Part shown: in pieces, positions 10,426-31,409 of the stretch
Numbering within the stretch: position 1 is the first letter of the stretch
How the letters are laid out: every line of letters begins with the position of its first letter
Source: Escherichia phage VpaE1_ev108
Length of the DNA: 64,000 nt
Sequence record: LR597658
Strand: one strand, 5' to 3'
Position numbers and translations under genes: made by a program
Notes under the pieces: model-generated
Seen by the model: the letters and a program-made list of their open reading frames with translations, nothing else
Database searches by the model: none
Told to the model about the DNA's origin: nothing

Positions 10426-10450
10426 TTTTAGTTTTAAAAACAAGTAAATT

Positions 10451-11576: not shown

Positions 11577-11577
11577 G

Positions 11578-11669
11578 TAATAAAGTACTTTACAAGGGGC
11601 TTAAAAAGTTGGTATCTTAAGCCCCAGATAAAGAGCTTTACGCAGTCCTTAAACTAGGAGATTAAAAAA
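11578..11669 (+). repeat. type-B hairpin-leader cassette (copy 5)
   Basis: GGGGCTTAAAAAGTTGGTATCTTAAGCCCC + leader variant. Confidence 0.7.
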
Positions 11670-11915: not shown

Positions 11916-12004
11916 ATAAAGTACTTTACAAGGGGCTTATAGTTCGATAAAGTAAGCCCCAGATAAAGAGCTTTACCACTAAATCCTAAACTGGAGATTC
12001 AAAA
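11915..12004 (+). repeat. type-B hairpin-leader cassette (copy 6)
   Basis: near-identical to copies at 9362 and 10786. Confidence 0.7.
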
Positions 12005-12568
12005 ATGAAATGCTATCACGGAACTACCCTCAAAAACTTTGTAAACCTGCTGAATGGTGGCGACAAGCCGGAAGGAATCTGGAACTGCTCATACATGGAT
12101 GATTGTTTCTACGTTTACCCAATGAACAAGATTATCAAAACGGAATGTCTGGAAGATGAGGAAGATTCTTACATTCGTGAACGCTGCATTCAAAACGCTT
12201 TAGAATCTGGGCTTATTACGGCAGCTTTCCAAATGGAAACGCAGGACGTAATTGTCATTGAGATGGATATCCCAGAGGAAGAGCTAGAGGATGATTATTC
12301 TTGTGACAACATGAGCGATATCGCCAGCTTTACCGGACACTTTGATAAAAATTGGATTATTGGCCTTCACTCGACGAAATTTAGTGCGATGTATGCACCT
12401 TTCTTTGTACCAGATGCAACTAACCGCAATTTAGGCTATGTTGACGATGATTTGTTAAGTATGGCGAAAATTGTACAGAATAGCGGTGATAGTTCCGTGT
12501 TTTGTGACTTGCTGGATAAAATCACGGCAAACATCACAGAGCGCAATTTAAAAGACTTTTTAGGTTAA
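12005..12568 (+). CDS. hypothetical acidic protein
   Basis: 187 aa ORF behind type-B cassette. Confidence 0.55.
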   Translation: MKCYHGTTLKNFVNLLNGGDKPEGIWNCSYMDDCFYVYPMNKIIKTECLEDEEDSYIRERCIQNALESGLITAAFQMETQDVIVIEMDIPEEELEDDYSCDNMSDIASFTGHFDKNWIIGLHSTKFSAMYAPFFVPDATNRNLGYVDDDLLSMAKIVQNSGDSSVFCDLLDKITANITERNLKDFLG

Positions 12569-12631
12569 TCAGTACAAAGACACCAACTTCCAACTTAAGG
12601 CCCATACAGGGCCATTTAAAGGGCTTAAATC

Positions 12632-12865
12632 ATGCTTACAACCATTTATCTTATCCTTTCTATTTGTAATGGTCATTCATGTGATTTTAAAGGGCTTGAG
12701 GAGTTTACAGGGAGTAAAGAAAATGCTATTCAAGTTTGCCAGATAGCAAGACAAGACTATCCCGCCAGTGATGATATTCAATGCTACTTTAAGACAGAAG
12801 ATGAAGACGGCGTCTATTTTGACAGTGTCGATGGTCAATATGAAATTATCATTGAAAAAGACTAG
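12632..12865 (+). CDS. hypothetical small protein
   Basis: 77 aa ORF; preceded by a different hairpin (GGCCCATACAGGGCC). Confidence 0.45.
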   Translation: MLTTIYLILSICNGHSCDFKGLEEFTGSKENAIQVCQIARQDYPASDDIQCYFKTEDEDGVYFDSVDGQYEIIIEKD

Positions 12866-12890
12866 ACAAGCCTGATAAAAGTCTGTAAAT

Positions 12891-12956
12891 TGTCAATCAA
12901 CGGGGAGGGAATGACCTTCCCCACTAAATAAAGTCCTTAAACTAGGAGATTCTAAA
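12891..12956 (+). repeat. type-A hairpin-leader cassette (copy 4)
   Basis: TGTCAATCAACGGGGAGGGAATGACCTTCCCC + leader. Confidence 0.7.
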
Positions 12957-13298
12957 ATGGCTTATGTAACTGTAATTACCGATAAAGAAGATTCATCTTG
13001 GTCAACTCAAGTAAGTGATAAGATGTCACCTATGCAGTGCCTAAAATACTTTGAGCAGTGGAACAAAGGCGAGGATGTCAGCCCCTTTCAAGTGATGCAA
13101 ATTATCCATACAGATAACGAAGGGAACAAAACGACACTTAATAGCGAGTATTACGCAAATCGTTTTGAGAGTCGAGTTGAAACGATGAAGGGGCTGCGTG
13201 AGGCCGGATATGGGCACATTGCCGCCTTGTTATGGGATAGCCTACTAAAAAATCAGCGTATCAGCTATGTAAAACCTGAAAAAATATTCATCAGTTAA
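12957..13298 (+). CDS. hypothetical protein
   Basis: 113 aa ORF behind type-A cassette. Confidence 0.55.
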   Translation: MAYVTVITDKEDSSWSTQVSDKMSPMQCLKYFEQWNKGEDVSPFQVMQIIHTDNEGNKTTLNSEYYANRFESRVETMKGLREAGYGHIAALLWDSLLKNQRISYVKPEKIFIS

Positions 13299-13319
13299 TC
13301 AATAACTTACAAAAAACTT

Positions 13320-13360
13320 TTAAAAAGATGTTGACAATCCCTCTTGACATTGGTAACTTT
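13320..13360 (+). promoter_or_regulatory. sigma70-like promoter (tandem TTGACA boxes)
   Basis: TTAAAAAGATG-TTGACA - 17 nt - TAACTT. Confidence 0.45.
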
Positions 13361-13454
13361 GTTCGAGGGGGGTTTATCTAAAAGGGATTAACTTAAAAGA
13401 TTCTTTATAGATAGACTTAAAAAAATTGCTTGCAATCAGATATCAAAACAAGTA

Positions 13455-13522
13455 AATTACTCATCAACGGGGAGGCAATAACCTCCCTACTAAGTAAAGT
13501 CCTTAAACTAGGAGATTCTAAA
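13455..13522 (+). repeat. type-A hairpin-leader cassette (copy 5)
   Basis: same compensatory stem variant as copy 3. Confidence 0.7.
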
Positions 13523-14053
13523 ATGAACAAGTTCAAAGCTATCAACTATATTCGTTCAAATAATGTAATGTCTAAGCCCGTTAAAGATACCTATGAATTT
13601 CGTTGTAATGGGGTACACTTTGCAACCATTACCAAATCAGAAAACGGGGCTTATTACGTTCATCGTCGTAATGTTGCAACCGTTGTAGTCTCTCACTTTA
13701 TGCAAGCTGTCGCGGAATTATTACCGTTATTCTTAGAGATTTATCTAGATGAGTGTAAAAACGTTCACAATCACGTTAAAAACCTTTTAAATAGTTATAA
13801 AATGGCTTATGAACGTTCTATCAAGTCCTTAAACAAGTTTTACAACGCACCTAAAAATACTGTATCAATAGCCTATGCTGCAAATGGTGAGATGGTAAAC
13901 TTATCCAATGTGGAAGAAATCAAGCTGCATGATTTACGCCCTAGCGGTTACTCTAAGACTCTCGGTGAAGGTTTAACGTTCAATATCAAGAACTTAGAGA
14001 AAACTTTAAAAGATATTGAAAAAGATATTGACGAGACAATCAAAAATCTGTAA
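13523..14053 (+). CDS. hypothetical protein
   Basis: ATG at 13523 behind cassette; ORF-track start 13430 would translate through the repeat. Confidence 0.55.
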   Translation: MNKFKAINYIRSNNVMSKPVKDTYEFRCNGVHFATITKSENGAYYVHRRNVATVVVSHFMQAVAELLPLFLEIYLDECKNVHNHVKNLLNSYKMAYERSIKSLNKFYNAPKNTVSIAYAANGEMVNLSNVEEIKLHDLRPSGYSKTLGEGLTFNIKNLEKTLKDIEKDIDETIKNL

Positions 14054-14114
14054 ATTGTCAATCAACGGGGGATGACCTCCCCCACTAAATAAAATCCTAA
14101 ACTGGAGATTCAAA
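14051..14114 (+). repeat. type-A hairpin-leader cassette (copy 6, variant stem GGGGGA/TCCCCC)
   Basis: CAACGGGGGATGACCTCCCCCAC + leader. Confidence 0.7.
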
Positions 14115-14378
14115 ATGGAACACGTCGAACTGACCACACTTTTACAAATTGCAACCGACAAAGAGGATGTAGCACTATTCCATCGTATCGAGAGTGATTT
14201 GTTCAATGGTGAAATCATTAAAGAGTCTTACGAAGTTGTCGGATTCAAAGACGGTAAAGCGTTCGGATTCTTTGACCTCGACAAAGGCAAAGCGGTTACA
14301 AAATATGATGTTTTATCTTGTGAGATTCTGACAAAATACAACGAAAAAAGACTTGCAACATACGCCAACATGCAGTAA
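14115..14378 (+). CDS. hypothetical protein
   Basis: 87 aa ORF behind type-A cassette. Confidence 0.55.
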   Translation: MEHVELTTLLQIATDKEDVALFHRIESDLFNGEIIKESYEVVGFKDGKAFGFFDLDKGKAVTKYDVLSCEILTKYNEKRLATYANMQ

Positions 14379-14458
14379 ATTACTAATCAACGGGGAGGGA
14401 ATGACCTTCCCCACTAAATAAAGTCCTTAAACTACTTCCTAAACTGGAGATTCTAAAA
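14376..14458 (+). repeat. type-A hairpin-leader cassette (copy 7, leader partly duplicated)
   Basis: leader contains CCTTAAACTACTTCCTAAACTGGAGA duplication. Confidence 0.7.
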
Positions 14459-14707
14459 ATGGCAACTATCCGCGCTACTGTTAACGAGTTCGGTTTTTCC
14501 TCTCTGGATGTTAAATTTGACATTGCAGGCACTGATAACACCTTTGAAATGGTGAAAAGTCTTATCAGTCAGACCATCAAAGATTATAATCCTTCGGATG
14601 AGTTCTGGGAGGAAACAAAACAAGAAGTTCTCAAGGATGGTTATACTTATCACTATTGGGGAGAAAAAATCGTCTCCCTGTACTACAACAAACAAGATTA
14701 TAACTAA
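14459..14707 (+). CDS. hypothetical protein
   Basis: 82 aa ORF behind type-A cassette. Confidence 0.55.
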   Translation: MATIRATVNEFGFSSLDVKFDIAGTDNTFEMVKSLISQTIKDYNPSDEFWEETKQEVLKDGYTYHYWGEKIVSLYYNKQDYN

Positions 14708-14745
14708 TCGACGCAGCGGGGCTAAATAGCCCCAGATACCTCAAC

Positions 14746-14770
14746 AGCCCCTATTTAAAGGGGCTTTTTT
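14746..14770 (+). terminator. intrinsic terminator closing the small-ORF array
   Basis: GCCCCT-atttaa-AGGGGC hairpin followed by TTTTTT; preceded by a type-B-like hairpin GGGGCTAAATAGCCCC. Confidence 0.6.
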
Positions 14771-16341
14771 ACGTCTATCCAATCCTTATACAATCCCTTT
14801 CCAGAATCTTATCAGACCTTAAAAGCAATAACTCTATAGTCTACTCTATAACCTCTTATCAAATCAACTTAAATAAAAGCCAATAACCCCCAGAAAGGGG
14901 ATGGCCCATTTAAACGCTCTATAAAGCTCTATAACAGCCTTATCAACCTAACTTAAGGGATTGCATTAACCAACCTTAAAAAGCTCTTTACAGGGCTTTA
15001 TAGAGACTTAAAAGAATCTTATAAGGGTGTAAGCTTTATTATCTCATTAGTATTCTTGTGAATATCTAAACAACCCCTTGATAGTCACTAAAAAGTATGT
15101 TATAGGGGCTTTAAAGTTACTTTGAAGTAGCTTAAAAGTTACGTAAAAGAGGCTATAAAGTTACGTAAATGCTAGCCCCCTTAACATTTTCTTAACAATT
15201 TCTTAACAAACCCTACATAGTTATGCTTGTTAGCAACTTGTTAGCCCCTTGTTAAATCTCTGTTAATACCACGTAAAAGCTTTGTAAGAGTCTTTGACAT
15301 AGCCTTTAAAGCTTCTGTAAAGCCCTATAAAGAGCTTTCTTCATAGTTGGGGTGTAATTACTAGGAAGAGCCTTAAAAGAGCTTACAAGGAGCTATAGAG
15401 AGCTTTTAAGAGGGCTATTTAAAGAGTCACTAAGAGGGAAAGGGAACGATAAGAAAGAGATAGTGACCATGTTAATAGCTTGTTAAAAAGATTAAACACT
15501 TGTTAGAGACTTGTTAATTATCTTAACAAAATAACTCTTAACATTTAACTACTTAGCTCTTGTTAGTCATCTGTTAAGATTCTGTAAAGACTATTCAGCA
15601 CTTGTTAGAAAACTGTTACAACCTTGTTAGACTTGTTAAGAATCTGTTAAGACCTTTGAAGAGTTGTTAAGAAGATGTGAGAACTGTTAAGAGATTGTTA
15701 AGGATATTTTAAAATTTTGCAAAGGGGATGTTACAGGGATGTTAAGGGCTACCAAGCAGATATACATCTTCTACAGATATTTTTCAGTTCCTTCAAAGAC
15801 CCTAAAAAATGACTTGATAGTCCTATTTTATAAAAATTTTAAGATTCTGAATAATTACCTATACAGCCTTTTAAAAATACAGGTAATAACAGGCTTATAA
15901 GATACCTTGTTAGTACCGTGTTAGACCTTGTGAGATAAGGTCTGTAAAGATATTCCTGTTAAGTTTGTTAAAACAGTCTATATAGAGGCTTAGTAGCACC
16001 TAGTGAACACCTATAGAGAGTAACATAGCTGACATAGAGATTAAGAGGTGTATAGGAGCTTCTAAGAGGATGTAGAGAGATGGTTAAGGTGATTGTATAG
16101 GTTGTTTAGAAGGCTTGTTAGAGGGCTATTTAGAAGGGCTATACAGAGGGCTATTAAGACCACTAGATAGATACTAAGATACTATATAGTACTATATAAC
16201 TATATAGAGAGTAAGATTAAGAAGGTTGTTAAGAAGGATAGATATTTTATTCACATATGATGGTGACCCAGAGGTTGGGACAACCGATAAAATTTTATAA
16301 AAATTAAAAAGCCCCCGATTAAGGAGGCTCTTAAGATATTT
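14771..16341. promoter_or_regulatory. 1.6 kb ORF-free, motif-dense region between convergent gene blocks (candidate origin / regulatory hub)
   Basis: no ORF of 60 aa or more on either strand; more than 20 copies of YTGTTAAG/CTTGTTAG between about 15180 and 16240; tandem ~20 bp units of GCT(A/T)T(A/T)AAAG.. and palindromic CTTWWAAG 8-mers. Confidence 0.5.
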
Positions 16342-23585: not shown

Positions 23586-23749
23586 AGATAATCCTCTTGT
23601 CTTCTGTAATTTTGAAAGAACAGGTACAGACCAATTTCAGAGGACGAATAGTAGATTAATTCTACCCTTTTTGATTCCTTACAGTGATTGGTATTCTTAC
23701 CTTTCTTCGGTTTATTTGATTTTCTCATTAAGTCTCCTTTGTAGAACAA
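23567..23749 (-). CDS. hypothetical small basic protein
   Basis: 60 aa ORF, first gene of the minus block. Confidence 0.35.
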   Translation of the reverse strand: MFYKGDLMRKSNKPKKGKNTNHCKESKRVELIYYSSSEIGLYLFFQNYRRQEDYLCVVPN

Positions 23750-23821
23750 GGCAGACCTACAGCTTTAAGTAAGATGGTACAGTAATCCATACAACAAGTC
23801 AAGAACTATTGCAAGTTAAAA

Positions 23822-23870
23822 AAGTTGTTGACAAAGTACTTGACAAGGTGTAGGCTTATAAATACTTAGA
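23822..23870 (+). promoter_or_regulatory. tandem sigma70-like promoters in divergent intergenic region
   Basis: AAAAAGTTG-TTGACA..TTGACA followed by TAGGCT / TACTTA at 17-nt spacing. Confidence 0.4.
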
Positions 23871-23977
23871 AGATAACTTAAAAGGTTCCTCTAAAAAGGC
23901 TATTTAAACAGATATCTTTCTGGATATCTATCTTTTATCTTAAAAGCCTTTTAAGAGGTCTTATAAGAGGCATACCA

Positions 23978-24349
23978 ATGAAAAACAGAACAAACAAAGG
24001 CCAGTTTAAAAAAGGCCAGTCTGGAAACCCATCTGGAAGACCAAAAGGCTCTCGTAACAAAAGCTCACTTGTAAAAGCTCAACTGACCATTGATAATTCT
24101 GCTGAGTTTGCTGCAAAGTTGTTTGAGGCGATTGTTACAAGGGACGCTGCTAAGCTTGCAGAGTTCGGGTTAAACACAGACGACGTAACCATCAAGAGCA
24201 TGATTGAGGTAGGTAAAACTATCTTTACTCACTCAGCAGGTGAGATGAAAGCACTTGCAGCAGACACTAAGAAGACTCCTGATAATGGTGGTCAACAACA
24301 GACAGATAACAAACCAACGTTCTCTGCTGTTGCAACCCTCAAAAAATAA
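23978..24349 (+). CDS. hypothetical protein with GNPSGRPKG motif
   Basis: 123 aa ORF, AGAGG SD; basic Gly/Pro N-terminus. Confidence 0.5.
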   Translation: MKNRTNKGQFKKGQSGNPSGRPKGSRNKSSLVKAQLTIDNSAEFAAKLFEAIVTRDAAKLAEFGLNTDDVTIKSMIEVGKTIFTHSAGEMKALAADTKKTPDNGGQQQTDNKPTFSAVATLKK

Positions 24350-24392
24350 TTTTAAAAGGTGTTGACAGACTCTACAAAGTTGCTCTAAAGTC
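24345..24392 (+). promoter_or_regulatory. sigma70-like promoter
   Basis: TTTTAAAAGGTG-TTGACA - 18 nt - TAAAGT. Confidence 0.45.
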
Positions 24393-24430
24393 TGTCACAT
24401 CAACAAACAAAATGAGAGAAGAGAGTAAAT

Positions 24431-25846
24431 ATGAGCGAATTATTTAAACATGCGCACCTTCATGCAGGTCGAACTGAAAATGGTGCTATAAACCATACTT
24501 CATCAATGTCTGCTCTTGTAGACTTTTACAAAGCTGCGGGTTCTAGCCGTAGCAATGTAGAAATCTTACCAGACCTGTTCTACAAAGCTTTGCGTGAGGA
24601 TGTTGATGTTGCAGTTCGTATTTTGCTTCATATGCGAGATGTACGAGAGGGTATGGGTGAGCGTAAAGCTTTCCGAACCGTTTTGCTTCAAGCAATTGAA
24701 GATAAAGTTTTAGAGCCTACACAGGTTCTTCGCATTATGGATAAGATTGCAGAACTTGGTCGTTTTGATGACTTCAAAATCTTCGTAGGTACTCGTTTCG
24801 AGACAGATGCCTTCAAACATTTAGAAGCAGCATTACTAGACCCTGCAACAGCAGGTTTGGCAGCTAAGTGGTTACCACGAGTAAAACCACGTCATAAGCA
24901 GTTTGTAAAACGTTTCTGCAAGTTTGCCAACTTGAGTGAGAAAGAGTACCGCACACTGTTGTCTGCACTATCTGATACAGTTGAGCAAAAAATCTCTGCT
25001 AATGAGTTTGGTAAGATTGACTACAGTAAGATTCCTTCTCTTGCTGCTGCACGTTACCAAAAGCTGTTTAACCGTAAAGATGGAGAGCGTTACAAAGCTT
25101 ACATCGAGTCCTTATCAAAAGGTGAGACTAAGATTAACGCTGGTGCTGTTTACCCATACGATGTGATTAAATCTGTTAAGTATGGTAATGCAGATGTTGC
25201 TAATGAGCAGTGGAAAGCACTACCAAACTGGATGGCAGAAGGTGAAAACATCTTGTGTATGTCTGATGTATCAAGTTCAATGTCTTGGGTGAATTTTGGC
25301 TCCATTACTGCTCTGGATATTGGTGTATCACTTGCCTTGTATGTAGCAGAACGCAATACAGGTTGCTTTAAGAATGAGTTAATGGTTTATTCAACAAACC
25401 CTCACTTCATCGAACTGAGTGGTGATTTACGAAACCGTCATCGTCAGGTGATGCGACACGTTGAATATGGCTCAACTAACTTACAAGCAGCTTTTGACCG
25501 CATTCTTGAAACAGGTAAAAGAAACAACTTGACTCAGAAAGATATGCCAAGTAAGCTTATCATCTTCTCCGATATGGAGTTCAATCAGGTTGATGGAGCT
25601 AACGGTCGTACAAACTTTGAAGCAATTCAGAGTAAGTACAAAAAAGCTGGATATGAGATGCCACAACTGGTATTCTGGTACTTAGCAAACCGTAATGGTA
25701 CTTGCGAAGTATCTGTTAAGGATAACGGTGTAGCAATGGTATCAGGGTTCTCTCCAGCCACTTTAAAAGCTCTGCTTGGTGGTGAGAAGTTTGACCCAAT
25801 CAGCGTAATGCTCAAAGCAGTAATGATTGACCGTTATATCTGGTAA
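24431..25846 (+). CDS. Ro60/TROVE-like protein with C-terminal vWA domain (MIDAS motif)
   Basis: GENILCMSDVSSSMSW (DxSxS MIDAS, cf. Ro60 ..DVSASM as recalled), GSTNLQAAF, LIIFSDMEFN vWA motifs; ~270 aa helical N-terminal region; GAGAG SD. Confidence 0.6.
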   Translation: MSELFKHAHLHAGRTENGAINHTSSMSALVDFYKAAGSSRSNVEILPDLFYKALREDVDVAVRILLHMRDVREGMGERKAFRTVLLQAIEDKVLEPTQVLRIMDKIAELGRFDDFKIFVGTRFETDAFKHLEAALLDPATAGLAAKWLPRVKPRHKQFVKRFCKFANLSEKEYRTLLSALSDTVEQKISANEFGKIDYSKIPSLAAARYQKLFNRKDGERYKAYIESLSKGETKINAGAVYPYDVIKSVKYGNADVANEQWKALPNWMAEGENILCMSDVSSSMSWVNFGSITALDIGVSLALYVAERNTGCFKNELMVYSTNPHFIELSGDLRNRHRQVMRHVEYGSTNLQAAFDRILETGKRNNLTQKDMPSKLIIFSDMEFNQVDGANGRTNFEAIQSKYKKAGYEMPQLVFWYLANRNGTCEVSVKDNGVAMVSGFSPATLKALLGGEKFDPISVMLKAVMIDRYIW

Positions 25847-25849
25847 AAA

Positions 25850-25895
25850 GTTTTAAAAAGGGTATTGACAATGTGTTTAATACCCTTTAATATGT
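25850..25895 (+). promoter_or_regulatory. sigma70-like promoter upstream of tRNA island
   Basis: TTTTAAAAAGGGTA-TTGACA - 17 nt - TAATAT. Confidence 0.55.
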
Positions 25896-25949
25896 TCTAC
25901 ATAGAAACGAAATGAGAGCTTTTCTAAGATACTGAAAAATATTTTAAAA

Positions 25950-25990
25950 AAGTTCTTGACAATCACTAAAAAATAATGTTAAAGTGGTTA
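25950..25990 (+). promoter_or_regulatory. sigma70-like promoter upstream of tRNA island
   Basis: TTTTAAAAAAGTTC-TTGACA - 18 nt - TAAAGT. Confidence 0.45.
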
Positions 25991-26011
25991 CATAGAGTTT
26001 GAAAAGTTTAT

Positions 26012-26088
26012 CTCTGTTTAGCTCAGCTTGGTAGAGCGTTCCGTTTGGGGCGGTAAGGCCGGAGGTTCAAGTCCTCCAACAGAGACCA
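26012..26088 (+). tRNA. tRNA-Pro (anticodon UGG)
   Basis: acceptor CTCTGTT/AACAGAG, T-arm GGAGG-TTCAAGT-CCTCC, loop ttTGGgg, encoded CCA. Confidence 0.6.
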
Positions 26089-26095
26089 AATTAAT

Positions 26096-26173
26096 GTTCC
26101 AGTAGACAAAATGGTAAAGTCACCACTCTTTCAAAGTGGATATCTGAGGGTTCAAATCCCTTCTGGAACGCCA
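26096..26173 (+). tRNA. tRNA-Glu (anticodon UUC)
   Basis: acceptor GTTCCAG/CTGGAAC, T-loop TTCAAAT, anticodon stem CCACT/AGTGG, loop ctTTCaa, CCA. Confidence 0.65.
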
Positions 26174-26178
26174 GTTTT

Positions 26179-26256
26179 GACAGAAGACCAATTACAGCAA
26201 ACTTAATCTTATTCATCTGAAGGTAAATCGGACAAAGAAGAGATTTGGTCTGGTCA
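26179..26256 (+). repeat. E1: conserved bulged-stem element (CAGAAGACCAA ... TTGGTCTGG)
   Basis: 5' block CAGAAGACCAATTACAGCAA and 3' block TTGGTCTGG form a 7 bp helix enclosing ~52 nt. Confidence 0.5.
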
Positions 26257-26264
26257 TTAAGAAT

Positions 26265-26341
26265 TGCGGGTATAGAGAAAGGGCGTCTCACATGTCTCAT
26301 TAGCATGGTATCGGCAGGTTCGACTCCTGCACCCGCCTCCA
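26265..26341 (+). tRNA. tRNA with CAU anticodon (Met, fMet or Ile-lysidine type)
   Basis: T-arm GCAGG-TTCGACT-CCTGC, acceptor with mismatch at pair 1-72, loop ctCATta, CCA. Confidence 0.5.
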
Positions 26342-26345
26342 AATT

Positions 26346-26415
26346 TACAGAAGACCGTTTACAGCAATATTTATTAAATTTTTAGCGGAAAAAATTGAAA
26401 GATACGGTCTGGTAA
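26346..26415 (+). repeat. E2: conserved bulged-stem element (CAGAAGACCGT ... ACGGTCTGG)
   Basis: same flanks as E1 with compensatory AA/TT to GT/AC change in the helix. Confidence 0.5.
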
Positions 26416-26425
26416 TACTAAACAT

Positions 26426-26502
26426 GGTTAGGAAGCACATAAGGTATGTGCGGTCGCCTGTTAAGCGAATGGCACAGGGTTCGAATCCCTGACTAACCGC
26501 CA
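26426..26502 (+). tRNA. tRNA-Asn (anticodon GUU)
   Basis: T-arm CAGGG-TTCGAAT-CCCTG, loop ctGTTaa, CCA. Confidence 0.65.
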
Positions 26503-26571
26503 AATTTAGGAGAGAAGCGATTGCTCACCGATTTGTAAGGTGCAAGTCCTTAGCCTGAATAGAAATTAAAT

Positions 26572-26659
26572 GTGTCGTTATCCCGTAGATGGTAGCGGTG
26601 GGGACTGTAAATCCCTTGTCATTGAGACTCGGTAGGTTCGACTCCTACACGGCACACCA
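26572..26659 (+). tRNA. tRNA-Tyr (anticodon GUA), long variable arm
   Basis: 88 nt; acceptor GTGTCGT/ACGGCAC, anticodon stem GGGGA/TCCCT, loop ctGTAaa, T-loop TTCGACT, CCA. Confidence 0.65.
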
Positions 26660-26664
26660 ATAAA

Positions 26665-26742
26665 GGTTATGTAGTTTAATTTGGTTAAAATACTCCCCTG
26701 TCACGGGAGATGATGAGGGTTCAAATCCCTTCGTAACCGCCA
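26665..26742 (+). tRNA. tRNA-Asp (anticodon GUC)
   Basis: anticodon stem CTCCC/GGGAG, loop ctGTCac, T-loop TTCAAAT, CCA. Confidence 0.7.
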
Positions 26743-26801
26743 ATTTTGAGAGGGCTATTTAGCCCCTCCCTTAAAGGGTTCTTACGAGTATTCTTTAAAG
26801 G

Positions 26802-26880
26802 AGCAGAAGACCAAATTCAGCAAGTTACTTAAAATTTCAAGCCAATTTAATTTTGAAAAATTTAAAACTTGGTCTGGCTC
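26802..26880 (+). repeat. E3: conserved bulged-stem element (CAGAAGACCAA ... TTGGTCTGG)
   Basis: same conserved flanks, ~54 nt AT-rich insert. Confidence 0.5.
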
Positions 26881-26888
26881 AACAAATT

Positions 26889-27024
26889 TACAGAAGACCG
26901 TTTACAGCAAAACTTAACAATCTATTTCTCCGGTAAAGAAAAGGCGAAGGTTCGATTCCTTCACTCGGCAGATGTCGAGTTGGTGTAATGGTAGTACTTA
27001 AGATGATAAACAACGGTCTGGTAA
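26889..27024 (+). ncRNA. E4: candidate structured RNA, bulged stem enclosing a tRNA-like T-arm (Y-RNA-like?)
   Basis: CAGAAGACCGT ... ACGGTCTGG helix; interior has perfect T-arm GAAGG-TTCGATT-CCTTC, a second hairpin ACTCG..CGAGT and D-loop-like AGTTGGTGTAATGGTAG, but no acceptor stem. Confidence 0.35.
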
Positions 27025-27170
27025 TTATCTTTGTAGATAAGTTATTAAGCTTACCTGTGAGTATGCGACCACAAAGGGTGAAAGGGTAAATTCTAGATTT
27101 AAACCCAAAAAGGCACATCGCTACAGACCTTAAGCAAGTCTGGGTAGCTTATCTACAAAGATAATTTAAT

Positions 27171-27246
27171 GGAAGTGTAGCAGAATGGTGATGCGGCAGA
27201 CTTTTAATCTGACAGGCGATGGGTTCGAATCCCTCCACTTCTACCA
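27171..27246 (+). tRNA. tRNA-Lys (anticodon UUU)
   Basis: acceptor GGAAGTG/CACTTCT, loop ctTTTaa, T-loop TTCGAAT, CCA. Confidence 0.6.
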
Positions 27247-27250
27247 ATAT

Positions 27251-27327
27251 GGTTCAGTCGCAGATAAGGTAATGCAAGGGTCTCATAAGCCCTATGAATG
27301 TGGGTTCGATTCCCATCTGAACCTCCA
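27251..27327 (+). tRNA. tRNA-Met (anticodon CAU; GGG/CCC anticodon stem)
   Basis: acceptor GGTTCAG/CTGAACC, loop ctCATaa, T-arm GTGGG-TTCGATT-CCCAT, CCA. Confidence 0.65.
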
Positions 27328-27328
27328 A

Positions 27329-27404
27329 GCTGGTATAGTTAAGAAGGTTATAACACTCCCCTGATAAGGGAACATCGGTGGTTCGATTCCACCTACCAGT
27401 ACCA
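27329..27404 (+). tRNA. tRNA-Ile (anticodon GAU)
   Basis: loop ctGATaa, T-arm GGTGG-TTCGATT-CCACC, CCA. Confidence 0.65.
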
Positions 27405-27411
27405 ATTTCAA

Positions 27412-27450
27412 TAAAGTTGTTGACATTGAGATGTGACTACTTTATAGTAA
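27412..27450 (+). promoter_or_regulatory. sigma70-like promoter internal to tRNA island
   Basis: AAAGTTG-TTGACA - 17 nt - TATAGT. Confidence 0.55.
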
Positions 27451-27651
27451 CCTTAGTTTTCGTTGCGTAGCGTCTATTTTGCAAATTTAAAATAAATGCA
27501 AACGACAATGTTTTTCTGGCAGTAGCTTGATAGGCTAAACACCAGTGAGGTCTTCCAATCCCTCATCAAAGAATTTGGCGTACTCGCCCACGGTATGATT
27601 AATAAGGTGGGCATCTTTAAGGGCTTTCTAAGAGAGTCTTTAAAGATTAAT

Positions 27652-27728
27652 GCACCCTTAGTTCAACTGGACAGAGCAAATGACTTCTAATCATTGAGTT
27701 ACAGGTTCGAATCCTGTAGGGTGTGCCA
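27652..27728 (+). tRNA. tRNA-Arg (anticodon UCU)
   Basis: acceptor GCACCCT/AGGGTGT, anticodon stem AATGA/TCATT, loop ctTCTaa, T-arm ACAGG-TTCGAAT-CCTGT, CCA. Confidence 0.7.
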
Positions 27729-27870
27729 ATTAGTTAGCAGATTACTTAGACGACCTAAGCGGGTCTTCCTGTAGGGAGGTGGTCTGTATCTCATGTTTTC
27801 CAGAACATGTAAATAATCTGAGAAGGGGCTTTACAGTGTTGAGATAATACGGTAAGCTTCGAATTATAGT

Positions 27871-27953
27871 ATGGGACGATGTTAAGACTCTAAGGCATGA
27901 GCAACGGCTTCCAACACCGTTTCAAAGGGGTTCAACTCCTCCGTCCCATGCCA
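27871..27953 (+). tRNA. tRNA-Trp-like (anticodon CCA), atypical 83 nt with enlarged D region
   Basis: perfect acceptor ATGGGAC/GTCCCAT, T-loop TTCAACT, loop ttCCAac, CCA; D-arm cannot be folded canonically. Confidence 0.4.
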
Positions 27954-27966
27954 AAATCTTATTAGG

Positions 27967-28054
27967 GGTAGGTAGCGGCTAATGGTAGCCAAACTGTCTT
28001 GAAAACAGTTGCCACTGTAGAGATACGGTGAGGGTTCGACTCCTTTACTTACCG
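27967..28054 (+). tRNA. tRNA-Ser (anticodon UGA), long variable arm, no encoded CCA
   Basis: 88 nt; anticodon stem ACTGT/ACAGT, loop ctTGAaa, 3-bp D stem, T-loop TTCGACT. Confidence 0.6.
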
Positions 28055-28210
28055 CCTAATAAGATTTAAAGCCAAGCTTCATTCGGATGTTGCTTTGGTA
28101 TCCCGCGTGTATTGTTGTACACACTGATAAAGCACCTAGTAGGTGTCACGGAGAAGAGATAATATCAAGCTCTCCAAAGGTTCTAGTCACCGGATTAAAC
28201 AAGACTATGC

Positions 28211-28233
28211 AAAGACCTTTTTAGGTCTTTTTA
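28211..28233 (+). terminator. hairpin plus T-run inside tRNA island
   Basis: AAGACC-ttttta-GGTCTT followed by TTTTAG; stem uses the same AGACC/GGTCT motif as the E elements. Confidence 0.35.
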
Positions 28234-28311
28234 GAGGGCTTCTAAGGTTATTACAGCTTGTTGTGGAACCTTGTTGCTTAGGTTCTTAGAAGTTCTCTAA
28301 AAAGATTTAAT

Positions 28312-28389
28312 GGGAGATTGACGGTAATTGGTAAACCTATCTCGCTTAGAACGAGATGTTTGAGGGTTCGAATCCCTTGTCTCCTACCA
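28312..28389 (+). tRNA. tRNA with UAG anticodon (Leu by anticodon; class-I length)
   Basis: acceptor GGGAGAT/GTCTCCT, anticodon stem TCTCG/CGAGA, loop ctTAGaa, T-arm GAGGG-TTCGAAT-CCCTT, CCA; short variable arm. Confidence 0.5.
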
Positions 28390-28396
28390 AATTAAT

Positions 28397-28472
28397 GCAG
28401 GTGTAGCAAAATGGTTATGCGGCTGACTCTTAATCAGTAAGACGATGGGTTCAATTCCCTCCACCTGTACCA
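28397..28472 (+). tRNA. tRNA-Lys (anticodon CUU)
   Basis: acceptor GCAGGTG/CACCTGT, loop ctCTTaa, T-loop TTCAATT, CCA. Confidence 0.55.
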
Positions 28473-28477
28473 AAAAT

Positions 28478-28553
28478 GGGGTCATAGTTTATATGGTTAA
28501 AATTCGAGTTTTGCAAACTTGGGAACTGAGTTCAATTCTCAGTGACTCCACCA
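28478..28553 (+). tRNA. tRNA-Ala (anticodon UGC)
   Basis: G3:U70 pair in acceptor stem, loop ttTGCaa, T-arm CTGAG-TTCAATT-CTCAG, CCA. Confidence 0.7.
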
Positions 28554-28559
28554 ATTAGT

Positions 28560-28634
28560 GCATCCATAGTTTAAACGGGAAAATTACAGTCTTCCAAACT
28601 GAGGTTGAGGGTTCGATTCCCTCTGGATGCTCCA
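28560..28634 (+). tRNA. tRNA-Gly (anticodon UCC)
   Basis: perfect acceptor GCATCCA/TGGATGC, loop ctTCCaa, T-loop TTCGATT, CCA. Confidence 0.7.
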
Positions 28635-28641
28635 AATTAAT

Positions 28642-28717
28642 GCTTCTATCGTATAATTGGCTATTACGGTTGCCTTGTAAGTAACTTATCAGGGTTCGAA
28701 TCCTTGTGGGAGCACCA
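28642..28717 (+). tRNA. tRNA-Thr (anticodon UGU)
   Basis: anticodon stem GTTGC/GTAAC, loop ctTGTaa, T-arm CAGGG-TTCGAAT-CCTTG, CCA. Confidence 0.65.
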
Positions 28718-28814
28718 ATTTAGAGGTCAAGTGAAAGACCGCTTTGAGTCAACTGAAGACCGTAACAAATTCCACGGAGTTGAGTTAGCGGCACAACTCC
28801 AGACCTCTTCTCAC

Positions 28815-28889
28815 ACTCGCTTAGTTTATATGGTAAAACACCACCCTTACAAGATGAAGAAAAAGGTTCAAGTCCTTTAGTGAGTACCA
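28815..28889 (+). tRNA. tRNA-Val-like (anticodon UAC), weak anticodon stem, possible pseudo-tRNA
   Basis: acceptor ACTCGCT/AGTGAGT, D-arm GTTT..AAAC, loop ctTACaa, T-arm AAAGG-TTCAAGT-CCTTT, CCA; anticodon stem pairs only 3 of 5. Confidence 0.4.
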
Positions 28890-28890
28890 T

Positions 28891-28968
28891 GTTCCAGTAT
28901 CCCAATTGGCAGAGGATGCAAGCTCAAACCTTGTACTAGTGACGGTTCGAATCCGTCTTGGAACACCA
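28891..28968 (+). tRNA. tRNA with CAA anticodon (Leu by anticodon; class-I length)
   Basis: acceptor GTTCCAG/TTGGAAC, anticodon stem GCAAG/CTTGT, loop ctCAAac, T-arm GACGG-TTCGAAT-CCGTC, CCA. Confidence 0.5.
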
Positions 28969-28973
28969 ATTTT

Positions 28974-29049
28974 GCAGGATTAGTTCAAATGGATAGAGCA
29001 ACAGTCTACGAAGCTGTTAATAGGGGTTCGAATCCCTTATCCTGCGCCA
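28974..29049 (+). tRNA. tRNA-Arg (anticodon ACG)
   Basis: perfect acceptor GCAGGAT/ATCCTGC, D-arm GTTC..GAGC, loop ctACGaa, T-loop TTCGAAT, CCA. Confidence 0.7.
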
Positions 29050-29068
29050 ATTTAAAGAGGCTATTTAG

Positions 29069-29626
29069 ATGAGATATTTGAAGTATGCTTCATGGATTTT
29101 CTTAGCTTTGTTAGAACCATTTGCAGCAATCTTAGCAGTTATCTTAGCACCTTTTGTAGTTCCATTCTACAGTGAGAAGAAAGGACACTTACCTTTCGGG
29201 TTCAGATGGATGGAGACATATGACAACCCAATTGATGGTGATGAAGGTCACGTTAAAAGATGGGCTAATATTAGATGGATTGGTAAACTAGGTGTCTACA
29301 TGCAAAGAGTCGGATGGCTCTGGAGAAACAAAGCTTATAACTTCTCTTACCATGTGTTAGGAAGAGATGTAAAAGATGTTACTAAGTGGAAAGGTAATAT
29401 CAACGTAAGTTCTAACCCTGAAGATAATCAGACAGGTTATCTCCTAATGTGGAACAGTAATGCTTGGGGATTATTCGCTTTTACCCCATCAATTAAAATC
29501 TTTGGTAAACAGTTTTACTGGAGAATTTATATTGGGTGGAAGCTAAAAAGTGTTGTCCCAGAAGAAAGAGCATTCTCAAGGGAAAGAGTTATGTTGGCAT
29601 TCTTTATTCATCCACTAAGAAAGTAA
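29069..29626 (+). CDS. hypothetical Trp-rich membrane protein embedded in tRNA island
   Basis: 185 aa ORF; N-terminal hydrophobic segment WIFLALLEPFAAILAVILAPFVV; AAGAGG SD; TTA/AGA-rich codon usage unlike structural genes. Confidence 0.55.
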   Translation: MRYLKYASWIFLALLEPFAAILAVILAPFVVPFYSEKKGHLPFGFRWMETYDNPIDGDEGHVKRWANIRWIGKLGVYMQRVGWLWRNKAYNFSYHVLGRDVKDVTKWKGNINVSSNPEDNQTGYLLMWNSNAWGLFAFTPSIKIFGKQFYWRIYIGWKLKSVVPEERAFSRERVMLAFFIHPLRK

Positions 29627-29634
29627 AGATTTAA

Positions 29635-29710
29635 AGGGGATTAGTTTACAAGGTTAAAACCTCGGTCTTTGAAATCGAAGAAGTTGGTTCAATTCCAACA
29701 TCCCCCGCCA
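29635..29710 (+). tRNA. tRNA-Gln (anticodon UUG)
   Basis: anticodon stem TCGGT/ATCGA, loop ctTTGaa, T-arm GTTGG-TTCAATT-CCAAC, CCA. Confidence 0.55.
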
Positions 29711-29712
29711 AT

Positions 29713-29791
29713 GCTCCATTACTCCAATTGGCAGAGAGGCCAGACTTAAAATCTGTGTTATGTATCGGTTCGAATCCGATATGGAGTACCA
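29713..29791 (+). tRNA. tRNA with UAA anticodon (Leu by anticodon; class-I length)
   Basis: acceptor GCTCCAT/ATGGAGT, loop ctTAAaa, T-arm ATCGG-TTCGAAT-CCGAT, CCA; variable region about 8 nt. Confidence 0.45.
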
Positions 29792-29796
29792 AATTT

Positions 29797-29872
29797 AGCG
29801 GTATAGCATAACTGGCAATGCAGCAGCCTCTGAAGCTGTCCTATTAAGGTTCAAATCCTTATGCCGCTGCCA
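29797..29872 (+). tRNA. tRNA-Gln (anticodon CUG)
   Basis: anticodon stem GCAGC/GCTGT, loop ctCTGaa, T-arm TAAGG-TTCAAAT-CCTTA, CCA. Confidence 0.6.
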
Positions 29873-29903
29873 CTTCTAAGGATTCTTGCGAGAGTCCTTA
29901 AAT

Positions 29904-29979
29904 GTGGCCTTATCATAAACGGTAATGACCCATGCTGTGAACATGGTCTATACGGGTTCAAATCCCGTAGGTCACCCCA
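29904..29979 (+). tRNA. tRNA-His (anticodon GUG)
   Basis: anticodon stem CCATG/CATGG, loop ctGTGaa, T-arm ACGGG-TTCAAAT-CCCGT, CCA. Confidence 0.65.
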
Positions 29980-29984
29980 ATTTA

Positions 29985-30061
29985 TAGTCCAAGTAGCTTA
30001 TATGGTTAAAGCGCGTGTCTGAAAAACATGAGAAGAGGGTTCAAATCCCACTGGACTACCA
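29985..30061 (+). tRNA. tRNA-Phe (anticodon GAA)
   Basis: perfect acceptor TAGTCCA/TGGACTA, loop ctGAAaa, T-loop TTCAAAT. Confidence 0.6.
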
Positions 30062-30077
30062 ATTTCAAAGGTGCTTA

Positions 30078-30812
30078 ATGAAAGAGATGACAGAACAAGG
30101 TAAGGAGATTTTTAATCTCTTAAAAACCGGTAAAGGGTTCTCTAACCCACTTATTACTGGTGCAGCAGTTCTCGGTGGAACCGTAGCTGCTTCTACATCA
30201 CTTGTAAGCTCTATTAGTTCTGTAACAGACCCTACAATGAAGGAGAAACTTGTTGCTGCTGGACTTACAACAGTCCTTCTAAACAGCTTTACAACAAGCC
30301 TTACAAGCACTACAGCAACTACTAAAACTCTGACAGACTACGGTCAAAAGTCTATTGATGAGTTTTCATCACGTATGCAGGTAGCAAAGGGGTATTCCAA
30401 TGTTATGGGTGCAGCAGGAGAACAAGTTGGTTGTACACCATTCAGTGGTATCATGGGTGTTGCTACAGAGTATGGTCAAAAAGCTATTGACATGATGAAC
30501 AGTACACTAGATAGTGTTAATGGTGTGTTAAGTGACTTGCAAGATGCTATTGATAAGGGTCTTGATACTGTTTCTGATTTAGCTAATCAGGCTGTTAGTA
30601 AGATTAATGAAGGTATTTCAAAGATTACAGCTTATGCAGATGAAGTTGTGCAGATGATTGAAGAAGAAGCTGCCCTTATTGCAGAGTACCTTAAAACGAA
30701 TATCAATGGGTTCTTAGCAGGTATCTTACCAGACTGGTTTGATGATGCCTGTAAAACTGGTGTAATTGACACTATTGCAACACCAGAAATGAAGAGCGCA
30801 TTACAGAAATAA
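30078..30812 (+). CDS. hypothetical Ser/Thr-rich coiled-coil protein
   Basis: start moved to ATG 30078 because ORF-track start 30015 lies inside tRNA-Phe; 244 aa. Confidence 0.5.
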   Translation: MKEMTEQGKEIFNLLKTGKGFSNPLITGAAVLGGTVAASTSLVSSISSVTDPTMKEKLVAAGLTTVLLNSFTTSLTSTTATTKTLTDYGQKSIDEFSSRMQVAKGYSNVMGAAGEQVGCTPFSGIMGVATEYGQKAIDMMNSTLDSVNGVLSDLQDAIDKGLDTVSDLANQAVSKINEGISKITAYADEVVQMIEEEAALIAEYLKTNINGFLAGILPDWFDDACKTGVIDTIATPEMKSALQK

Positions 30813-30813
30813 T

Positions 30814-30906
30814 GGAAGATTAACCCTAAAAGGTAAGGGAGCAGTTTGCTAAACTGCCAGTAGCTGAGAAATCGGTGTACCAGTTCAAGTCTGGTATCTT
30901 CCTCCA
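30814..30906 (+). tRNA. tRNA-Ser (anticodon GCU), long variable arm
   Basis: 93 nt; acceptor GGAAGAT/ATCTTCC, anticodon stem GCAGT/ACTGC, loop ttGCTaa, T-arm ACCAG-TTCAAGT-CTGGT, CCA. Confidence 0.65.
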
Positions 30907-30910
30907 ATTT

Positions 30911-30986
30911 GAATCCGTGACAGAAATGGCTATGTGCCTGTCTGCAAAACAGGTTTATAAGGGTTCGAGTCCCTTCGGATTCTCCA
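30911..30986 (+). tRNA. tRNA-Cys (anticodon GCA)
   Basis: perfect acceptor GAATCCG/CGGATTC, anticodon stem CCTGT/ACAGG, loop ctGCAaa, T-loop TTCGAGT, CCA. Confidence 0.7.
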
Positions 30987-31023
30987 AGTTATTTTACTCT
31001 CTCTCAATTAAAATAATAATAAT

Positions 31024-31084
31024 GCCCTGCTATAAGTATTCTTCCTTTCGCTACCGAAGAGTATTTTTAGACAGGGCTTTTTTA
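31024..31084 (+). terminator. compound hairpin terminator after tRNA island
   Basis: GCCCTG ... CAGGGC outer stem with inner TATTCTTC/GAAGAGTA hairpin, followed by TTTTTTT. Confidence 0.5.
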
Positions 31085-31148
31085 CAGAGTTATACTTTAT
31101 AAGAAGGCTTATACAGTATGTCTCTGACGTACATTGTGGTTTCTCCTT

Positions 31149-31172
31149 GACGGTCTCTGTGCCGTCTTTTTT
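31149..31172 (+). terminator. intrinsic terminator
   Basis: GACGG-tctctgtg-CCGTC followed by TTTTTT. Confidence 0.6.
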
Positions 31173-31208
31173 AAGGAGAAACATGGTTAATTATTTGGAG
31201 AAAACATA

Positions 31209-31409
31209 ATGAGTGAGACCGTTTATAAAGAACTTTATGAAGCTAACAAAAAGCTAGAATTTATGCAGAATACTATCATGGCAATTGCAGACAGACTGTC
31301 TGTAGCAACAGGTATTGATATTAAAGAAGCATCTATGGATGCACTTCTTGATGCCGTTGATGCAAAGTTCGAAGTTAAGAAAGAAGAGACTGCTACAGAC
31401 TCTGAATAA
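31209..31409 (+). CDS. hypothetical small acidic protein upstream of terminase
   Basis: 66 aa ORF, GGAGA SD. Confidence 0.5.
   Translation: MSETVYKELYEANKKLEFMQNTIMAIADRLSVATGIDIKEASMDALLDAVDAKFEVKKEETATDSE

Follow-up and report, generated by a model that had tools for sequence, protein, structure and literature searches.

Which polymerase reads the promoters ahead of the transfer RNA (tRNA) genes of a Felix O1-like phage, when Felix O1 itself has no RNA polymerase gene and no known polymerase modifiers (PMC3185647)? The question is raised by positions 25850 to 25990 of a 64,000-nucleotide (nt) stretch of Escherichia phage VpaE1_ev108 (LR597658; hereafter the window), where two sigma70-like promoters, P1 and P2, stand in tandem before a tRNA-Pro gene. 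By its sequence the window is Felixounavirus DNA (Felix O1/wV8-like, subfamily Ounavirinae), with region 25000-27000 being 97-99% identical to Felixounavirus genomes, e.g., LF82P9, adrianh and wV8. Its G+C content is 38.8%, 17% of it is non-coding, and it holds 26 tRNA genes (26012-30986), with tRNA-Pro starting at 26012. An earlier note on this DNA had counted P1 and P2 among at least eight promoters that share an A/T-rich upstream element, and had read them as strong, early and dependent on host polymerase. We confirm the observation of a promoter family; its sites are real and ordinary host-type promoters, of a well-known kind and with several members predicted before, and they are very probably read by the unmodified host sigma70 RNA polymerase with the help of UP elements.

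The flagged interval holds two complete promoter arrangements on the + strand, 91 bp apart. P1 begins with a UP-like A/T element (TAAAAAGTTTTAAAAAGG, 25844-25861, with TTTTAAAAAG at 25851-25860) that spans -56 to -39 from the predicted start, followed by the -35 hexamer TTGACA (25865-25870), a 17-nt spacer and the -10 hexamer TAATAT (25888-25893), which places the predicted start at ~25900/25901. P2 has the UP-like element AAAAATATTTTAAAAAAG (25935-25952; within it TTTTAAAAAAG at 25942-25952), TTGACA at 25956-25961, an 18-nt spacer that ends in TGT, i.e., an extended -10, and TAAAGT at 25980-25985; its predicted start at ~25992 is 20 nt 5' of tRNA-Pro. The motif TACATAG lies at the expected start of both. 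When 25 distinct Felixounavirus/Mooglevirus sequences are compared with the upstream protein gene as anchor, the UP elements, -35 and -10 hexamers and start motif of P1 and P2 are essentially invariant, with isolated single-base changes (one of the 25 sequences has TTTC for TTTT in the P1 UP element), and variation is found in the P1-P2 interval, at spacer positions and at the end of the upstream gene. A 7-codon open reading frame (ORF) after P1 was rejected, its ATG being lost in Mooglevirus.

All eight sites that the earlier note listed are found in the window sequence, with spacers of 17 or 18 nt and a TAnnnT -10 in every case (in site order TAATAT, TAAATT, TAACTT, TAGGCT, TAAAGT, TAATAT, TAAAGT and TATAGT). 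The claim of a common TTGACA -35 holds for seven of them (hexamers starting at 11286, 13331, 23828, 24362, 25865, 25956 and 27420) and fails for the site at 8408, which has TTGACT and an upstream element, TTTTTAAAATTTTTA, other than ...AAAAAG. The composite motif AAA[AG]G-N2-4-TTGACn-N16-18-TAnnnT occurs as 10 matches representing 8 distinct sites, against a mean of 0.15 and a maximum of 2 in 300 dinucleotide-preserving shuffles of the window, and all 8 sites lie in the non-coding fraction and are oriented with the downstream genes. Among the 76 TTGACA words of the window, an A-rich -45 to -40 segment is associated with a well-spaced -10 (odds ratio 22, p=8e-5). When the eight listed sites are used to train a weight matrix, 13 sites score >=18 where 0.10 are expected, the members beyond the training set including 14028(+), 11925(+), 60267(-) and 58519(-). 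Across 11 core members, the -35 is TTGACA in nine and TTGACT or TTGACG in the other two, with spacers of 16 nt (one site), 17 nt (eight) and 18 nt (two).

The upstream element has a defined anatomy. In a logo of the 11 sites aligned on the -35, A is found at -45 to -40 in 7-11 of 11 sites, G at -39 in 9, T at -37 in all 11, G at -36 in 7 and TT at -47/-46 in 10, with -38 variable; in the distal part, an A-tract at -55 to -52 lies one helical turn upstream of the proximal tract. The logo matches the proximal and distal subsites of UP elements in register, with an A+T-rich block between -40 and -60, where UP elements are located (PMC2988021) and within which adenines -41 to -43 are the critical positions (PMC4390567). 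The 25 nt 5' of the P2 -35 share 17/25 positions, in register, with the UP region of E. coli rrnB P1 (a sequence that we confirmed in E. coli genomes), a level reached by only 6e-5 of the 25-mers of the window. Site 8408 shares 16/25 and the other nine sites 7-12/25, with a background mean of 7.1; likeness to rrnB P1 in primary sequence is limited to these two of the 11 promoters. The proximal-subsite consensus reportedly given by Estrem et al. in 1999, AAAAAARNR ending one base before the -35, is likewise fitted in register by the phage motif (A at -45 to -40, G-39, variable -38). The A-tract, the distal A/T block, their register and their conservation support, from sequence, the UP elements that the earlier note had proposed.

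The pattern of constraint extends beyond the closest relatives. Felix O1 has all sites, including non-homologous ones built on the same design, and in the Kolesnikvirus Pistou, an Erwinia phage with 43.7% G+C, tRNA-Pro is preceded by GAAAAAC-TTG-TTGACA-N17-TATGAT and about ten further promoters carry an A5 tract at -44 to -40. Across genera too, -35, -10 and upstream elements are conserved and spacers and flanks vary. Part of this family is in the literature. The Felix O1 paper (Whichard 2010, PMC3185647) gives five host-type promoters, including P41 (our 23828) and P45 (our 27420); P2, 24362 and 13331 are absent from its promoter list, and the cassette sequences described below appear in it only as direct repeats of 39 and 57 bp. 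For UAB_Phi87, homologues of 24362 and 14028 are among the listed BPROM promoters (Bardina 2016, PMC4837284), as are homologues of type A and type B units of those cassettes. Neither of these annotations describes a shared upstream element (PMC3185647, PMC4837284), and the wV8 genome paper and GenBank record hold no promoter information for the flagged region.

Motif anatomy, non-randomness, placement and evolutionary constraint are direct observations, and anatomy, position, orientation and conservation all fit the dependence on host polymerase that the earlier note had claimed. For the binding of polymerase and of the C-terminal domain that its alpha subunit carries (alpha-CTD), as for start sites, strength and timing, we infer the following. 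Sigma region 4 would sit on the consensus TTGACA and sigma region 2 on the TAnnnT -10, 17-18 bp downstream, and two alpha-CTDs would occupy the UP element, with the proximal subsite being the A-tract at -45 to -40 (then G-39) and the distal one the A/T block at -56 to -46. This alpha-CTD contact would allow the phage promoters to out-compete host promoters without a phage-encoded factor. Tandem P1 and P2 would feed the 26-gene tRNA array, like rrn P1/P2, and further members would stand in front of the small-gene array, of gene 41/42, of the leftward replication genes and of a structured RNA in the tRNA island that resembles transfer-messenger RNA (tmRNA).

Several points weigh against this account. 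In DNA this rich in A+T, loose matches to the sigma70 core show no enrichment (62 vs 54 expected), agreement of the -10 hexamers with TATAAT is limited to 3-5 of 6 positions, with TAGGCT at 23828 being poor, and an extended -10 TGn is present in just 2/11 sites (25956 and 13331). Reverse transcription-PCR (RT-PCR) of Felix O1 dates ORFs 41 and 42, which lie 3' of 23828 and 24362, to 25 min, in a noisy table in which some structural genes appear at 5 min (PMC3185647), and our literature searches found no Felixounavirus transcriptome, start-site, footprint, reporter or in vitro transcription data. G-39, T-37 and G-36 are conserved beyond the generic UP consensus, which leaves room for an extra factor, and the P1 sequence has been published as Felix O1 terminators t42/t43 (PMC3185647). 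Since loose core matches alone are not enriched, the case stands on the composite motif and its conservation; the exact word TTTTAAAAAG is also present in non-promoter repeats at 58653, 58786 and 60046, so that it is the combination of elements that constitutes the signal. Two of the attributes given by the earlier note survive in part. "Strong" is at odds with the -10 matches, and "early" agrees with the detection of ORFs 16, 20-22, 45, 46, 48 and 49 at 5 min (PMC3185647) and disagrees with the timing of ORFs 41 and 42; because structural genes are also seen at 5 min, the RT-PCR is weak support for "early".

The published terminators raise the question whether P1 (25857-25893) is solely an intrinsic terminator or attenuator serving the upstream gene, or a bidirectional terminator, in which the promoter-like hexamers are incidental. 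A 12-bp inverted repeat, AAAGGGTATTGA...TTAATACCCTTT (25857-25888), covers the P1 -35 and spacer; it was flagged in the terminator scan as a terminator-like match, folds at -13.5 kcal/mol (z -3.2), and two substitutions found in its arms among relatives leave U-G pairs in the + strand RNA. Read on the minus strand, TTTTAAAAAG gives a U-run after this stem. The stem has only three G-C pairs, however, and the + strand continues with AAUAUGUUCU, not with a U-tract. Furthermore, TTGACA, TAATAT, the upstream element and TACATAG of P1 are near-invariant and match those of P2 and of family members without such a hairpin. We therefore regard a terminator alone as quite unlikely and a dual role as the likelier one. 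Overlapping promoters and stem-loops can both work in the promoter-early stem-loop (PeSL) elements, mobile regulatory cassettes of T4-type phages (Arbiol 2010, PMC2839356; Comeau 2014, PMC4122927), and, as the inverted repeat spans the -35 and spacer and equals t42/t43, we read P1 as a composite promoter/stem-loop. Its stem-loop probably attenuates or stabilises transcripts arriving from the upstream gene. The overlap of P1 with a hairpin published as a bidirectional terminator had been left out of the earlier note.

The conserved positions next to the -35 could instead indicate that the (T)TTTAAAAAG-N-TG element is the site of a protein other than alpha-CTD, be it a phage-encoded regulator that turns these promoters on or off, or a host nucleoid protein such as Fis, IHF or H-NS. 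CTTTTAAAAG is palindromic, and a related palindrome, CTTWWAAG, shows an enrichment of its own in non-coding DNA (39 vs 10.8 expected), so that a factor that binds A/T palindromes may exist. The promoter-linked element itself has no conserved C at -49/-50 and is therefore not a palindrome, it stands in a fixed register to the -35, that of the proximal UP subsite, its Kolesnikvirus counterpart GAAAAAC keeps the A-tract and not the flanks, and a perfect -35 makes an activator unnecessary. T-37 belongs to the classical extended -35 consensus tcTTGACat, which its conservation also fits, and we consider such a protein unlikely. Common descent of one mobile cassette, with many copies being inactive relics, would account for the clear paralogy among sites 8408, 11286 and 14028 and the type A/B units, all repeats of 84-99 nt, and for the cassettes that mark recombination breakpoints. 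It would not explain P1, P2, 24362, 23828, 27420, 13331, 60267 and 58519, which have only the functional elements in common, with unrelated spacers and flanks, nor the type B units, which are non-homologous upstream of the -10 and yet keep the A-tract and a -35-like hexamer; with promoter elements also conserved across genera, we hold this explanation to be very unlikely. Chance matches, finally, might be expected at 38.8% G+C, where loose sigma70 matches are as frequent as in shuffles, but the observed counts are 50- to 100-fold above expectation, the placement is intergenic without exception and conservation extends across genera; chance is ruled out by the shuffle controls, and its probability is next to nil. 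Host sigma70 promoters with UP elements thus remain our reading of the family.

The other members are distributed over several transcription units. On the + strand, promoter 24362 (TTGACA-N18-TAAAGT, 24341-24391) precedes a vWFA/DUF2828 ("RNA-binding protein") gene at 24431; in the 25 relatives its -35 is invariant and its -10 nearly so (one variable position), with a varying spacer. Promoter 23828 (TTGACA-N17-TAGGCT, 23807-23856, +) is Felix O1 P41 and lies in a divergent intergenic region; its reading as a T4 late promoter was rejected, TATAAATA having 4 occurrences vs 4.5 expected. Back-to-back with it is a candidate leftward promoter, TTGACT-N17-TACCAT (23774-23802, -; -35 at 23802-23797), with a 25-bp upstream region common to both, and this candidate could be the promoter, missing from the Felix O1 paper, of the leftward operon. 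Promoter 27420 (TTGACA-N17-TATAGT, 27399-27448, +) is the internal tRNA-island promoter of the earlier note; it is real as a motif and equals Felix O1 P45 (PMC3185647), and its -35 and the TA...T of its -10 are kept in Kolesnikvirus, with a diverged spacer. On the - strand, 58519 (TTGACA-N17-TATTTT, 58491-58540) stands upstream of leftward early/replication genes, and 60267 (TTGACA-N16-TATACT, 60240-60288) has the upstream element TTTTTTATAAAAG.

Within and next to the small-gene array (all +), promoter 8408 (TTGACT-N17-TAATAT, upstream AAAATATTTTTAAAATTT, 8387-8436) heads the first unit and is followed by a type B leader hairpin. Promoter 11286 (TTGACA-N17-TAAATT, 11265-11314) lies inside a type B cassette and matches the 39-bp direct repeat of PMC3185647 with ~3 substitutions. 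Promoter 13331 (TTGACA-N17-TAACTT with a TGG extended -10, 13310-13359) is ~100 bp 5' of type B promoter 13430 and has a positional counterpart in Pistou at 81722. Promoter 14028 (TTGACG-N17-TAAATT, 14007-14056) reaches a matrix score of 27.1, being outside both the training set and the earlier list. In addition, a family-like site in the ORF49 homologue (30474-30521, +; GGTCAAAAAGCTA-TTGACA-N17-GATAGT or N19-TAGTGT, matrix score 18.4), ~330 nt 5' of tRNA-Ser, may act as a promoter within the gene. Conservation also extends to the initial transcribed sequences, with CATCAAC or TACATAG at 8443, 10457, 11321, 12898, 13465, 14063, 14388, 24398, 25900 and 25992, and CATCGAAAC(G)AAAC or CATCAAC at the starts in the Erwinia phage; this suggests a preferred start context or a 5'-end function.

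With respect to the small-gene array, the intergenic gaps between 8.3 and 14.7 kb (8290-14710, +) are filled by two alternating repeated units, types A and B, giving 13 cassettes between 8.4 and 14.5 kb, each before small ORFs. The six type A cassettes (8879-12014, +; -35 TTTACA at 8900, 9370, 9716, 10794, 11589 and 11925) have the form ATAAAG-TAC-TTTACA-N17/18-TAAAGT or TATCTT, with the -10 in the loop of an GGGGCTTA/TAAGCCCC hairpin and a conserved leader. Type B consists of an A5-6 tract, a -35-like hexamer, N17, TAAATT, N6 and a CAAC-GGGGAGG...CCTCCCC leader hairpin; units with a weaker -35 (10401-14458, +) are found at 10422 (TTGATT), 12863 (TAGACA), 13430 and 14353 (both TTGCAA), and the A5-6 tract and -35-like hexamer are kept even inside unrelated coding sequence. 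Both types end in a conserved Shine-Dalgarno sequence and ATG. Folded cassette segments reach -16 to -18 kcal/mol, and because neither hairpin has a U-tract, a terminator function of the type A and B hairpins is doubtful. Promoters 8408, 11286 and 14028 belong to this cassette system and 13331 is directly upstream of a type B cassette, a relation that the earlier note omitted. The mechanical start (TTG 13430) of ORF 13430-14053 lies inside a type B cassette, and the real start is probably the cassette ATG at 13523-13525.

The cassettes also coincide with sites of gene replacement. Five homology breakpoints versus Felix O1 or adrianh fall in cassettes, and the lone Felix O1 cassette is chimeric between window cassettes 11279 and 12866, the two that bracket a 1.5-kb, four-ORF difference; segment 11400-12860 is present in just 50 of 240 relatives. 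As a lesser lead, next to the RNA described below, these cassettes may be PeSL-like recombination modules at work outside the T4-like phages.

Directly 3' of promoter 27420 we observe an unannotated tmRNA-like RNA (27454-27651, +), followed by tRNA-Arg at 27652. It contains a 5' motif, UAGUUUUCG (27454-27462), AUAAAU plus the resume codon GCA (27492-27500), a tag ORF encoding ANDNVFLAVA (27498-27527) with stops at 27528-27533 (AUAAAU-GCA AAC GAC AAU GUU UUU CUG GCA GUA GCU UGA UAG), a tag-end hairpin (27516-27545) and two pseudoknots (27546-27580 and 27579-27612), all on the + strand. The 200 nt from promoter 27420 to tRNA-Arg are conserved from Felixounavirus to Kolesnikvirus with compensatory changes; the Pistou tag is ANDAQFLAVA, and between window and Pistou there are four synonymous changes and one stop-to-stop change. 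The tag frame is kept in eight BLAST-derived homologues, and distant BLAST matches to the RNA core, at 72-87% identity, come from Ackermannviridae, a Schitoviridae phage, Roufvirus, a 110-kb Klebsiella phage and a lambdoid Enterobacter phage, in nearly all of which the element is unannotated. An IMG/VR pattern scan yielded 109 loci, which together with other loci give 14 tag variants of the form AN[DE]xx[FY]LAVA; the four stems of two H-type pseudoknots and the tag-end hairpin each show ~4-7 compensatory variants. An AUG-initiated frame that overlaps the tag was rejected as not conserved.

These homologues are located beside tRNA clusters or in the late-operon leader of many unrelated enterobacterial phages, and in other phages, too, the 5' UAGUUUUCG has a sigma70-like promoter just ahead of it. 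Of 5,426 complete E. coli genomes, 291 carry the element, with 198 copies on plasmids. Plasmids of ~105-113 kb, possibly phage-plasmids, are among the matches listed, and the one examined adjoins a tRNA cluster; one examined chromosomal copy is situated between a prophage Q antiterminator gene and a holin gene. Among the matches listed, the E. coli copies are unannotated by NCBI PGAP.

The RNA resembles tmRNA in its AUAAAU before a GCA resume codon, its 10-codon tag with one or two stops in a hairpin and its two H-type pseudoknots, and its 5' UAGUUUUCG is similar to UUCGAC, the D-loop motif in the tRNA-like domain of tmRNA; the RNA differs in a tag that ends in AVA, not LAA. Rfam tmRNA models score below gathering (RF04321 at 29.2 bits vs 47, RF00023 at 15.9 vs 47, with homologues similar), and an Rfam scan of 23700-31300 gives only tRNAs above threshold. 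A tRNA-like domain (acceptor stem with G3-U70, T-arm, 3' CCA) was not found in the Ounavirinae form; ARAGORN at default settings reports no tmRNA and, when relaxed, assembles a tRNA-like domain from tRNA-Lys and promoter spacer. In the long forms, a manual search for pairing between 5' GGCGAAAUCYGG and 3' CCGGAG...CCGGCCACCA gave no consistent covariation and no credible acceptor or T-arm. A 2014 census placed phage ssrA only in mycobacteriophages and Bacillus phage G (PMC4131195), with later descriptions not excluded. As promoter 27420 immediately precedes the RNA, it probably drives it. That the promoter precedes and drives a new tmRNA-derived RNA, with a tag, two covarying pseudoknots and no recognisable tRNA-like domain, is a tentative proposal to which we give somewhat less than an even chance, and we treat this RNA as a lead rather than a conclusion.

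Two observations concern its surroundings. In the Felix O1 record (~25628-25760), the segment from the P45 -10 to the tag differs from the window, the 5' part with UAGUUUUCG being replaced, and the Felix O1 tRNA island contains inserted HNH endonuclease genes (ORF44, 45 and 47), which points to remodelling driven by homing endonucleases around the tmRNA-like RNA in Felix O1. At 26928-26990 (+) lies an orphan tRNA-like piece: CUCCGGUAAAG, then a perfect T-arm GAAGGTTCGATTCCTTC at 26946-26962, a 3' acceptor-like ACTCGGC-A, and then the matching 5' GTCGAGT with D-arm-like sequence. Its halves are apparently circularly permuted, Rfam gives a weak tRNA match (22 bits), and the piece is similar to the 5' part of the tmRNA-like RNAs that other phages have in long form.

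As for the general map of the window, nucleotide-metabolism genes and the small-gene array run rightward up to 14.7 kb, followed by a 1.6-kb non-coding stretch (14708-16340) that matches, from ~15190, the direct terminal repeat printed for UAB_Phi87, indicating that the window includes the physical genome end. Leftward genes occupy 16.3-23.7 kb; 3' of the divergent intergenic region (23750-23977), genes 41 and 42 open a rightward series that continues with the tRNA island and the structural genes, and replication genes run leftward from 55 kb onward. The 14708-16340 stretch is packed with CTTGTTA[AG], CTGTTAA and CTTAAAAG repeats. The palindrome CTTWWAAG (CTTAAAAG, CTTATAAG, CTTTAAAG, CTTTTAAG), 24 of whose 39 copies are non-coding, clusters in the terminal-repeat region and just 5' of gene 41 (e.g., 14818-15410, 23877-23967, 26793 and 27638), and may be a protein-binding site or a non-sigma70 promoter element. 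Regions 58447-58823 and 59870-60423 (-) have GGT-rich degenerate repeats in common (GGTATGGTGGGGTAGGGTGAGG...), both with the unit TAGTTAGTCTCAGCTACATTAAAATGAGACTTACCTTTTTAAAAGGTCTTTAAA, in what looks like an iteron/origin or a repeated small-RNA locus.

As regards the promoters, the gain is a modest one, namely a coherent host-type promoter map for Felix O1-type phages, which are widely used for the biocontrol and typing of Salmonella and E. coli. Part of this instance had already been published and part had been mis-annotated, and the published terminator call t42/t43 is corrected here to a composite promoter/stem-loop. The promoter map would explain how the tRNA array and small early genes fire at once without a phage polymerase or known sigma modifiers. 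In practical terms, these would be compact, presumably strong, factor-independent promoters with a defined UP element. The by-products outweigh the promoters: cassettes at gene-shuffling breakpoints would extend the PeSL idea beyond T4-like phages, and a widespread tmRNA-like RNA under a family promoter would bear on how phages handle ribosome stalling and host trans-translation. If that RNA is functional, phages would commonly carry a variant trans-translation RNA, or a decoy for tmRNA/SmpB, with a tag ending in AVA and not in the ClpXP-targeting LAA.

A close parallel is found in the early promoters of T4, likewise a virulent myovirus without an RNA polymerase of its own, which have near-consensus sigma70 elements with UP sequences at -40 to -60 (PMC2988021) and are described as "uber" UP/-35/TGn/-10 promoters that capture host polymerase right after infection (Hinton 2010, PMC2988021). 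T4 favours a GTTTAC-type -35 (PMC4122927), whereas the window family has TTGACA, TGn in 2/11 sites and a weaker -10; T4-type Alt/Mod ADP-ribosyltransferases and AsiA/MotA are not known for Felix O1 (PMC3185647) and were not searched for in the window. The rrn P1/P2 pair is alike in its tandem stable-RNA promoters, with a spacing of 119 bp in rrnG vs 91 bp in the window, and differs at the -35 (TTGTCA in rrnB P1 vs the consensus in window P1 and P2) and in the discriminator, which is GCGCCACC in rrn P1 and GTTCTAC or GGTTAC in the window. Because these phage discriminators are not G+C-rich, stringent or growth-rate control would not be expected. The window cassettes resemble PeSLs as ~60-100 bp units with a near-consensus sigma70 promoter, AT-rich upstream sequence, a stem-loop over or near the -35/-10 and a Shine-Dalgarno sequence with ATG, an anatomy found in types A, B and P1, and also as repeats before small ORFans in a hyperplastic region that coincide with indel/replacement breakpoints. 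PeSLs are defined only in T4-like phages (Tevenvirinae), whereas the units described here occur in Ounavirinae, have other sequences and come in two types, with the hairpin over the -10 or in the 5' leader.

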